Virus record (IMG/VR): IMGVR_UViG_2579778989_000007
Location: 1 to 4,231 of that record
Length of the DNA: 4,231 bases
From: a virus
Lineage: Duplodnaviria > Heunggongvirae > Uroviricota > Caudoviricetes
Strand: one strand, 5' to 3'
Shown here: one piece after another, positions 1,363-1,461 of the stretch
How the letters are laid out: every line of letters begins with the position of its first letter
Numbering within the stretch: position 1 is the stretch's first letter
Notes under the pieces: model-generated
The model's input: only the letters and a program-made list of their open reading frames with translations
The model's database searches: none
Told to the model about the DNA's origin: nothing
Position numbers and translations under genes: made by a program

Positions 1363-1461
1363 TCACCACCAGCGTATCTGACCGATGAAATAACCGGAGG
1401 CCATAATCACAAACACCAGCCAGATAAGAATGAACTTCCAGGTGGATAATTTTTCAGCCAT
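1363..1461 (-). CDS. Hypothetical 32-aa single-pass membrane peptide (MAEKLSTWKFILIWLVFVIMASGYFIGQIRWW) between the endolysin and Rz; not in the ORF track
   Basis: Hand translation: ATG (plus 1459-1461) to TGA (plus 1363-1365). GGGAG Shine-Dalgarno-like motif lies 9 nt upstream. The stop is separated by one base from the Rz ATG (TGA-A-ATG), suggesting translational coupling. One strongly hydrophobic, Trp-flanked segment. No homology evidence; the frame is also open upstream through the hairpin with no ATG, so it could be a remnant. Confidence 0.3.
   Translation of the reverse strand: MAEKLSTWKFILIWLVFVIMASGYFIGQIRWW

Follow-up and report, generated by a model that had tools for sequence, protein, structure and literature searches.

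A conserved 45-codon gene for a predicted membrane peptide on a portable cassette between the endolysin and Rz genes of a lambdoid prophage

The 45-codon gene and its predicted product

The window analyzed here, 4,231 nucleotides of a tailed-phage record (IMG/VR IMGVR_UViG_2579778989_000007, positions 1 to 4,231), carries on its minus strand a lambdoid lysis cassette in which the endolysin gene R and the spanin gene Rz are separated by 298 nt. In this gap lies a short open reading frame (ORF) that the original prediction described as an unannotated 32-codon gene for a single-helix peptide, coupled to Rz. Direct reading of the sequence showed that the positions given for its ATG, its GGGAG motif and its TGA were all correct; GGGAG lies at 1475-1471 (minus strand), 9 nt 5' of ATG 1461, and the stop codon TGA 1365-1363 is followed by one base (A, 1362) and then by the Rz ATG at 1361-1359, so that the ORF indeed ends in a TGA-A-ATG junction. 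The same frame is open upstream of ATG 1461, and a 45-codon ORF from GTG 1500 adds 13 residues (VFDFSKLIREIRV) in front of the 32-mer (Table 1).

This longer ORF is the conserved unit. All relatives start 13 codons before the position of ATG 1461, and their start codon is GTG or TTG and never ATG in 64 unique cassettes, the two exceptions being mutants that lack the start. The Shine-Dalgarno (SD) position preceding it reads GGGAGAA, AGGAGAA or GAGGAGAA in all relatives, and the same 45-residue start position is found in SPN3UB, SEN34, Pseudomonas phages and eight further genera. The 32 codons originally given as the extent of the gene therefore fall short, because the conserved unit comprises 45 codons from GTG 1500 and the upstream 13 residues are under amino acid selection: the 32-mer accounts for the distal two-thirds, and not the whole, of a gene that is real and conserved. 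We hold this anatomy, and the reality of the gene, with high confidence. A 57-residue ORF from GTG 1536, produced by mechanical listing, was rejected; it begins within the T tract of the hairpin described below, has no SD sequence and is not conserved.

The selection is evident at the protein level. Among 176 motif-selected copies (51 unique nucleotide sequences from more than eight genera), the ORF is intact in 174, and in the other two the upstream start alone is missing; near-identical Escherichia coli and Salmonella prophages make up the bulk of the sample, so such locus counts overstate independence. Across the 51 unique coding sequences, synonymous change is saturated at codons 15 to 43 (pS, 0.72 to 0.97), whereas nonsynonymous change is far lower (pN, 0.21 to 0.52). 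Leu7 is written as CTG, CTA, TTG or TTA and Arg9 as CGG, AGG, CGC or CGA, and positions 11 and 13 undergo conservative exchange among Leu, Ile and Val; the several synonymous codons and the conservative exchanges argue that the upstream 13 residues are translated. In addition, the N-terminal segment (residues 2 to 13) is the best-conserved part of the family, distant homologs included. A few frameshifted or truncated copies were found (P0030, P0033 to P0035, and P0037), as well as decayed Pseudomonas-type copies with internal stops (L111 and L112).

The start at ATG 1461 may still have a role of its own. Met14, which it encodes, and GAG at codon 10 are invariant in the 51 unique sequences and in distant HMMER matches, and an SD-like motif 8 to 10 nt before Met14 is kept in different codon contexts, as CGG or AGG followed by GAG (giving GGGAG) in enteric members and as GAG followed by GTN (giving GAGGT) in Pseudomonas. 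In three loci (L138, L175 and L178), the upstream start is gone but the ORF from ATG14 to the stop is intact; in L138 (2501-2617), a deletion takes out the hairpin, the leader and codons 1 to 6. The invariance of Met14, the maintained SD-like motif and the start-loss variants together suggest that ATG 1461 with its GGGAG may be a genuine second start, yielding a 32-residue isoform.

The 45-mer is modeled as a bitopic inner membrane peptide made up of an amphipathic N-terminal helix of about 20 residues, a transmembrane helix at approximately residues 22 to 42 and a three-residue RWW tail. AlphaFold2 (AF2) returned one continuous helix over residues 4 to 44 with a predicted local distance difference test (pLDDT) value of 86.5, and the best 19-residue Kyte-Doolittle window spans residues 24 to 42 with a mean of 2.13, in keeping with the single hydrophobic helix originally proposed. 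Residues 3 to 20 are amphipathic (hydrophobic moment, 0.56) and contain five Lys or Arg residues; their net charge is +2, and the positive-inside rule predicts a cytoplasmic N terminus. The codons TGG TGG TGA (Trp-Trp-stop; window positions 1363-1374, minus strand) also give an SD-like GGTGGTGA directly before the Rz ATG. The Trp-Trp tail is kept also where Rz does not follow, and an SD role alone is therefore not its explanation.

The gene has been catalogued already and usually goes unannotated. Residues 1 to 45 match the PHROG profile phrog_6632 over positions 1 to 45 of 45 (E value, 6.4e-30), and the Citrobacter and Pseudomonas variants match it too. PGAP calls an identical 45-residue coding sequence, the hypothetical protein WP_000459345.1, in E. 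coli FDAARGOS_1298 and R4; this accession is annotated in 2 of the 13 full-length rows sampled, that is, in a minority of E. coli annotations, and gene callers give 32-, 45-, 57-, 65- and 72-residue versions of the gene. The term "unannotated" therefore applies to the E. coli FORC_069 record, which is 100% identical to the window over the stretch tested (1340-1680) and has no annotation in its R-Rz gap, and does not apply to the genomes in which PGAP calls WP_000459345.1 or to the PHROGs collection. The 45-mer has no Pfam, NCBIfam or PADLOC match; family membership is established only for phrog_6632, and in kind the gene belongs to the small phage membrane-protein morons, with an unusual cassette. 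Overall, the original observation stood in its coordinates, ribosome-binding site (RBS) and junction and had to be revised in gene extent and annotation status, and its interpretation is supported in part.

A tblastn search with the 45-mer found it in H-19B, TL-2011c, CP-1639, Rac-SA53 and Stx1a, Stx2a and Stx2c converting phages, as well as in divergent relatives in Salmonella phages SPN3UB and FSL SP-016 (69%) and SEN34 (60%) and in Pseudomonas phages YMC11/02/R656 and D14H (50%), where the matches cover essentially the full 45 residues (1 to 45 or 3 to 44). This was the check proposed to tell conservation of the peptide from that of the DNA, and it came out for the peptide, with about 50% identity in the Pseudomonas phages and nonsynonymous change well below synonymous change. 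A one-genome-per-species scan added Citrobacter, Yersinia, Sodalis, Brenneria, Pantoea, Providencia, Trabulsiella and Pseudomonas reactans, and HMMER over 1.84 billion representative proteins returned 37 clusters, each of at most 86 residues and none of them a fusion. In IMG/VR, the initial query matched only identical E. coli copies, and divergent members were used as further queries. The R-cassette-Rz stretch is carried by approximately 871 of 5,426 complete E. coli genomes, about one in six.

Organization and mobility of the cassette

The gene is the distal part of a cassette of about 230 bp whose borders are sharp: conservation begins abruptly at an A-rich tract some 10 nt before a hairpin and ends at the stop codon, and the flanks are unrelated between contexts. 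On the minus strand of the window, the A-rich tract (about 1580-1570) precedes the hairpin stem and a T tract (1536-1527) follows it; the plus strand reads GGGGTTTTTACTTTT, so U tracts would arise on both strands and the hairpin looks bidirectional. This hairpin (CCCCG...CGGGG) has a counterpart in every relative; the terminator scan scores it, on the sense strand, as an intrinsic terminator, and 5 of its 12 pairs covary (at one pair, for instance, AU occurs 12 times, GC 5 times and CG 3 times). Between hairpin and gene, a second stem-loop pairs the RBS with an upstream UUUCCU, for which relatives use UUUCU. Minimum-free-energy (MFE) folding predicts it for the window and for 50 further variants of the cassette, and its inner helix, read by eye, occurs as CCUUG/CAAGG, UGACU/AGUCA, CGUUA/UAACG, CCUG/CAGG and GGCAG/CUGCC. 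RNAalifold on the leader alignment recovered the terminator and not this RBS-pairing stem, because indels misalign it; the stem rests on the single-sequence folds. No convincing sense-strand promoter was found inside the cassette, there being no sigma-70-like site between hairpin and ORF by promoter scan and by inspection of the approximately 40 nt concerned, and upstream of the hairpin the contexts have no conserved sequence in common. The cassette is a portable unit of hairpin, RBS-pairing stem, strong SD sequence with a weak GTG or TTG start, ORF with an internal SD-ATG, and a stop codon abutting the next late gene.

In the K-12 prophages Qin and DLP12, R overlaps Rz and nothing lies between them, which makes the cassette an insertion and agrees with the earlier view of the endolysin-Rz junction as a hotspot for inserted genes. 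Upstream of it, four unrelated types of endolysin are found (GH24 lysozyme, phrog_873, GH19 [phrog_181] and a TIGR02594-like hydrolase, the last recognized by eye only), and downstream there are two types of spanin, the second of them in Citrobacter. The junction of a stop, one nucleotide and the Rz ATG recurs as TAA-C-ATG, TGA-C-ATG and TGA-T-ATG in the SPN3UB type, L179, L189 and Citrobacter braakii, so the stop-to-start arrangement noted in the window is conserved among relatives. The same cassette also occurs between baseplate genes (SEN34 and Pantoea; 16 loci), after a tail fiber gene (Sodalis), and after the gene for a 965-residue protein (Brenneria); in Pseudomonas, it lies in groups of small morons, either between the tail-tip genes K and I or downstream of I. 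In some contexts without Rz, the stop is followed by a spacer and then by the next gene's own RBS. The cassette is co-oriented with the late genes in every context; its hosts are temperate phages of enterobacteria and Pseudomonas, and its commonest position is that between an endolysin gene and an i-spanin gene. At least seven combinations of flanking genes were counted, and presence or absence of the cassette between otherwise adjacent genes gives the distribution of a moron. The idea of a gene confined to lysis regions does not survive these findings, as the cassette lies between baseplate, tail fiber and tail-tip genes in other phages.

The leader is shared more widely than the ORF. In E. 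coli O157:H7 OK1 (L193, 2100-2510), and also in L199 to L278, the same hairpin, leader and SD sequence stand before different small single-pass proteins, and the order in O157:H7 is a 60-residue protein with a KYKR head (phrog_1115), a 43-residue MSDKL... membrane peptide (phrog_4906) and Rz. The phrog_4906 peptide often follows in this group, and heads (DFSK, KYKR and others) and membrane tails (...GYFIGQIRWW versus ...PFLWG...AIKG) are recombined behind the same leader. Together with the 45-mer, these tiny membrane proteins form a mosaic superfamily that shares one portable control module and whose members occur from Escherichia to Pseudomonas, in tail as well as lysis operons. In the Sakai prophages Sp9, Sp10, Sp12 and Sp15 (L194, L195, L196 and L198), a spacer of about 270 nt and a gene for an antirepressor occupy the R-Rz gap. 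A 48-residue ORF comes next in Sp9, Sp10 and Sp15 and ends 7 nt before Rz; the Sp12 stretch examined ends inside the antirepressor gene.

Table 1. Annotated and predicted features of the window
Feature	Positions	Strand	Description or basis
45-codon ORF	1363-1500	-	GTG 1500-1498 to TGA 1365-1363; product VFDFSKLIREIRVMAEKLSTWKFILIWLVFVIMASGYFIGQIRWW
32-codon ORF	1363-1461	-	ATG 1461-1459 to TGA 1365-1363; product MAEKLSTWKFILIWLVFVIMASGYFIGQIRWW
Shine-Dalgarno AAGGAG for the GTG start	1506-1511	-	5 nt before GTG; read from sequence
Terminator-like hairpin	1537-1580	-	Terminator scan; stem AAAACCCCG...CGGGGTTTT at 1569-1537
Leader stem-loop	1505-1533	-	UUUCCU (1533-1528) pairs with RBS AGGAGA (1510-1505); inner stem UGACU/AGUCA
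Predicted antisense promoter	1465-1493	+	-35-like TCGAAT 1465-1470; 17-nt spacer ending TGC; -10 TAAAAT 1488-1493
Predicted cis-antisense RNA, about 75 to 80 nt	1500-1578	+	Complementary to GTG, RBS and leader; ends at hairpin and U tract
Class II (phage 21 S-type) holin	2593-2808	-	Pfam PF04971; RefSeq annotation of identical record
YdfR/DUF1327 gene	2244-2588	-	Pfam PF07041; RefSeq annotation of identical record
Endolysin R, phage-21/RrrD-type lysozyme	1660-2193	-	Pfam Phage_lysozyme; resembles PDB 3HDE/3HDF and RrrD 4ZPU
Rz (i-spanin)	894-1361	-	Pfam Phage_lysis PF03245, E value 6e-48; ORF list
Rz1 (o-spanin)	956-1141		Embedded within Rz; ORF list

The surrounding genes make up the rest of the lysis cassette (Table 1). 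The N terminus of endolysin R is Gly/Ala rich and weakly hydrophobic, and we take the enzyme, from this sequence and from what is known of the R21 family, to be of the signal-anchor-release (SAR) type. Further upstream, an IS66-family transposase fragment (3110-4159, minus strand) continues past the window end; it adjoins and apparently truncates a DUF826-like ORF (2884-3030, minus strand) upstream of the holin gene, and the otherwise identical FORC_069 has intact DUF826, DUF1378 and SASA-esterase genes at this position. Positions 772-820 (plus strand), which come directly after Rz and run antisense to the late genes, are 94% identical to the Sakai EcOnc11 and EcOnc12 sites of Sp10 and Sp9, which are strong Hfq-CRAC peaks in Sakai (Tree et al. 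2014, Table S2, PMC4104026), map immediately downstream of Rz there too and have coordinates that may shift slightly between genome versions; by this identity, a prophage small RNA is probably encoded there. A small hydrophobic ORF at 403-561 (minus strand) corresponds to the 46-residue hypothetical protein WP_000347013.1 of the identical genome and has no PHROG match.

A predicted antisense RNA and explanations of the cassette

The first codons of the gene are constrained beyond the protein they encode. Over the 51 sequences, synonymous diversity is 0.00 at codons 3, 4, 5, 10 and 12, compared with 0.3 to 0.7 from codon 22 onward, and codon 6 is nearly fixed (AAA in 48 of 51 and AAG in 3; diversity, 0.11). 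The frozen codons are GAT for Asp, TTT for Phe or ATT for Ile, AGC for Ser, GAG for Glu, and for Arg12 CGA, a rare codon that is retained in GC-rich Pseudomonas phages too. Read on the complementary strand, codons 3 to 6 give an extended -10 element, TGCTAAAAT (1485-1493, plus strand) or TGCTAATAT, and the whole predicted promoter falls inside codons 3 to 12. All the frozen bases coincide with key positions of this promoter, and no Arg codon other than CGA would yield TCG on the complementary strand and so place T and G at -35 positions 1 and 3. The pattern TGNTAWAAT has two matches in the window against 0.35 expected, TGCTAAAAT being one of them; the other, TGTTATAAT (385-393, plus strand), lies beside the 3' end of the ORF at 403-561. 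Unrelated ORF heads behind the same leader carry TATACT or TACACT in the same register (ORF nucleotides 8 to 13) or TAATAT one nucleotide off (9 to 14); among the heads with such -10-like hexamers are that of the 60-residue KYKR proteins (phrog_1115) from O157:H7 and a different type seen in L205. A further plus-strand match (1378-1407, CTGACC-18-CATAAT) was set aside, as it lies in variable codons of the membrane helix and is not conserved in relatives.

From the conserved extended -10 element and the bidirectional terminator, an antisense RNA of about 75 to 80 nt is predicted, covering the GTG start, the RBS and the leader. The A tract in front of the hairpin, a conserved element of the cassette, would supply the U tract of this RNA, whose predicted fold has two hairpins with an MFE of -21.9 kcal/mol (z, -4.0). 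We regard a cis-antisense RNA from the TGCTAAAAT promoter as possible, with somewhat more doubt than confidence. Antisense RNAs in prophage late regions, as well as P22 sas/sieB, have been discussed (bioRxiv 10.1101/787010). A K-12 homolog with Ribo-seq support does not exist, Qin and DLP12 being without the cassette.

Taken together, these features can be put into one account. Since no convincing sense promoter was found in the cassette, synthesis of the peptide would depend entirely on transcription that reads through the hairpin, in lambdoid phages Q-antiterminated late transcription; otherwise the hairpin, the sequestered RBS, the non-ATG start and probably the antisense RNA would keep the gene off. 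The antisense RNA would block the start of the 45-residue form and leave the Met14 start free, giving two isoforms of 45 and 32 residues. The extent of this gating suggests a membrane-active, potentially toxic product, which might serve late as an accessory factor in lysis, perturbing or depolarizing the inner membrane or modulating the holin; in the window, it would help to trigger the pinholin/SAR endolysin pair, and its translation would hand ribosomes on to Rz. Gated late expression is the probable part of this account, by a modest degree. The accessory role in lysis, a guess favored because of the recurrent position between endolysin and spanin and because of the gating, is for its part rather unlikely to be right. 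As a composite (a conserved peptide on a gated late cassette, with antisense RNA, two isoforms and a lysis accessory function), the account is a tentative one that falls a little short of an even balance.

A number of observations weigh against it. The 109 of 176 sampled loci at which an Rz-like ORF comes next are mostly near-identical E. coli copies, and the count overstates independent events because near-identical prophages were sampled. Baseplate or tail positions far from the lysis genes occur in at least five contexts, which argues against a strictly lysis-linked role, and a terminator within a structural operon would be costly for phages without antitermination. For the antisense RNA in particular, the predicted -35 element is poor (TCGAAT or TCGCAA), the frozen codons 3 to 6 could instead arise from constraint on the translation initiation region, and G·U pairs in the inner stem of the hairpin favor the sense strand (about 10 cells versus 2). 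Cis-antisense RNAs are often independent of Hfq. Among the Hfq-CRAC peaks mapped in Sakai (EcOnc10/11/12, 32, 33, 51 and 52; PMC4104026), none falls in the R-Rz gap, the Sakai prophages inspected carrying other R-Rz inserts and not this cassette. The Rfam searches gave no match at the cassette (window at E values up to 1; eight related loci at E values up to 0.1), and the only Rfam match near it in the window is a sub-threshold rimP-leader on the terminator. Full-text literature searches found none of the peptide strings or the accession, and a further search, on spanin-neighboring type I toxins or small membrane proteins, returned nothing on this gene.

Other explanations share much of this evidence. 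The gene could be a lysogenic-conversion or superinfection-exclusion moron that protects the lysogen or the late-infected cell, its position being only a tolerated site of insertion. The cassette's occurrence among baseplate, tail fiber and tail-tip genes and in the small-moron clusters of Pseudomonas, its presence/absence polymorphism, and the shuffling of heads (DFSK, KYKR) and tails (RWW, AIKG), a pattern typical of conflict genes, all speak for such a moron, and genes of this kind are known from the neighborhood of endolysin and Rz, as in the case of lambda bor. However, with no sense promoter from hairpin to ORF and a terminator directly upstream, expression in a lysogen is not expected; there is no PADLOC match, and placement after four unrelated endolysins would be left unexplained. 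We consider a moron of this kind quite unlikely. A type I toxin-antitoxin (TA) system, in which the 45-residue peptide would be a toxin and the antisense RNA of about 75 nt an RBS-masking antitoxin for prophage stabilization or abortive infection, would fit the small single-pass peptide, the sequestered RBS with a non-ATG start, and the conserved antisense extended -10 element with its bidirectional terminator, and such systems are known on prophages. Nevertheless, no toxin promoter was found, so the sense RNA would be absent in the lysogen and there would be nothing to neutralize; the antisense RNA is itself a prediction, no similarity to known type I toxin families was detected in Pfam or NCBIfam, and a stop fused to the next late gene looks like operon membership and not like an autonomous module. 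This, too, seems distinctly unlikely. It is perhaps unlikely as well, to a lesser degree, that the hairpin-leader module is a gene in its own right, namely, one of a family of cis-antisense RNAs of about 75 nt whose promoter is embedded in the initial codons of the small membrane-protein gene behind it, be its head DFSK, KYKR or another, gating a dual-start peptide and perhaps acting in trans on late transcripts of superinfecting phages with the same cassette.

The remaining explanations concern what the ORF itself delivers. If only the 32-residue product from ATG 1461 were made, the upstream 13 codons would be a leader acting at the RNA level. This would accord with the paired upstream RBS and the GTG or TTG start, with the universal retention of Met14 and its SD-like motif, with the 32-codon ORF kept in L138, L175 and L178, and with the several gene callers that output the 32-mer. 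It is improbable, however, since residues 2 to 13 behave as protein (the codons of Leu7 and Arg9 and the exchange of Leu, Ile and Val), are the family's most conserved amino acids even in distant homologs, and follow a strong AAGGAG or GGGAGAA at ideal spacing before the GTG in every copy. A pure coupling leader, whose translation opens the Rz start or delivers ribosomes to it and whose peptide has no function, would account for the TGA-A-ATG, TGA-C-ATG and TGA-T-ATG junctions that recur wherever Rz follows, and has a precedent in isrK-orf45-anrP (PMC4825925). Yet the amino acids are conserved under saturated synonymous change, unlike those of orf45, the gene is found without Rz in many contexts, and K-12-type phages express Rz without the cassette, all of which makes this explanation very improbable. 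Finally, a chance ORF or the decaying remnant of a deleted insert, which the original prediction had entertained, could point to the few frameshifted, truncated or decayed copies; it is refuted by conservation, as almost every locus, in whichever genus, has an intact copy, protein-level conservation is strong and a dedicated PHROG family exists, and we give it next to no credence.

Carriers of the gene next to Rz include Stx1a, Stx2a and Stx2c converting phages and H-19B, and the gene is skipped by most annotations and is apparently unstudied. If the peptide does tune the timing of lysis, this would bear on the release of Shiga toxin, which depends on phage lysis. If the antisense, two-isoform switch is real, the cassette would be a compact regulatory device and would add a further class of prophage small RNAs; if instead the module is the gene, it would be a new portable switch, similar to type I toxins or to sas/sieB, in late operons from Escherichia to Pseudomonas. 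Even an inert peptide would leave the lesson that gene callers miss or mis-start the gene.

Comparison with known systems

The 45-mer is the same protein as phrog_6632/WP_000459345.1, its translation being identical to that of the PGAP coding sequence; beyond this, the likenesses are of arrangement. Two conserved candidate starts in one frame (GTG at codon 1 and ATG at codon 14), each with an SD sequence, in a small membrane protein of the lysis cassette with an RNA-structured start region recall the dual starts of holin and antiholin (lambda S107/S105 and phage 21 S71/S68). However, the starts lie 13 codons apart and not 2 to 3, the peptide has one helix and an RWW tail and no charged cytoplasmic C-terminal domain, and the lysis cassette already has its own S21-type holin. 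The 45-mer has no Pfam holin match at E values up to 1.

With the type I TA systems Hok/Sok, TisB/IstR and Ibs/Sib, the cassette shares a peptide of fewer than 60 residues with one membrane helix, an mRNA structure that restrains translation, and a predicted short antisense RNA that lies over the RBS and ends at an intrinsic terminator. It differs from them in that no toxin promoter was found, in that it is co-oriented within a late operon, and in that the peptide shows no similarity to a toxin family. Morons in the sense of Juhala and colleagues (2000) classically have a promoter of their own in front and a terminator behind; HK97 gp15 and lambda bor are examples. Similar to these, the gene is an extra one for a small membrane protein, placed between otherwise adjacent late genes at several unrelated positions, whereas its terminator stands upstream, no sense promoter is detectable, and in the Rz context there is no terminator downstream.

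SieB is much larger than 45 residues, is expressed from the prophage and mediates exclusion. Its gene bears no sequence relationship to the 45-mer, and the resemblance to P22 sieB/esc with sas lies in the two in-frame starts and in an antisense RNA, with its promoter inside the gene, that could shift synthesis from the long to the short product, a mechanism summarized for P22 in bioRxiv 10.1101/787010; in the cassette, the antisense RNA and the second product are predictions. A similar arrangement is that of isrK-orf45-anrP of Gifsy-1, which likewise has a terminator hairpin, a small ORF with a sequestered RBS, a stop touching the next start, and a need for read-through. In orf45, however, two AUGs lie four codons apart, the amino acids are not conserved, and the gene that follows is an antirepressor gene (PMC4825925). 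isrK itself has no Rfam match in the window (E values up to 1) or in eight related loci (E values up to 0.1), and given the different ORF anatomy we rejected identity of the two elements: they are analogous and not homologous. The insert between R and Rz in the Sakai prophages, a third kind at this site, recalls the Gifsy-1 arrangement.

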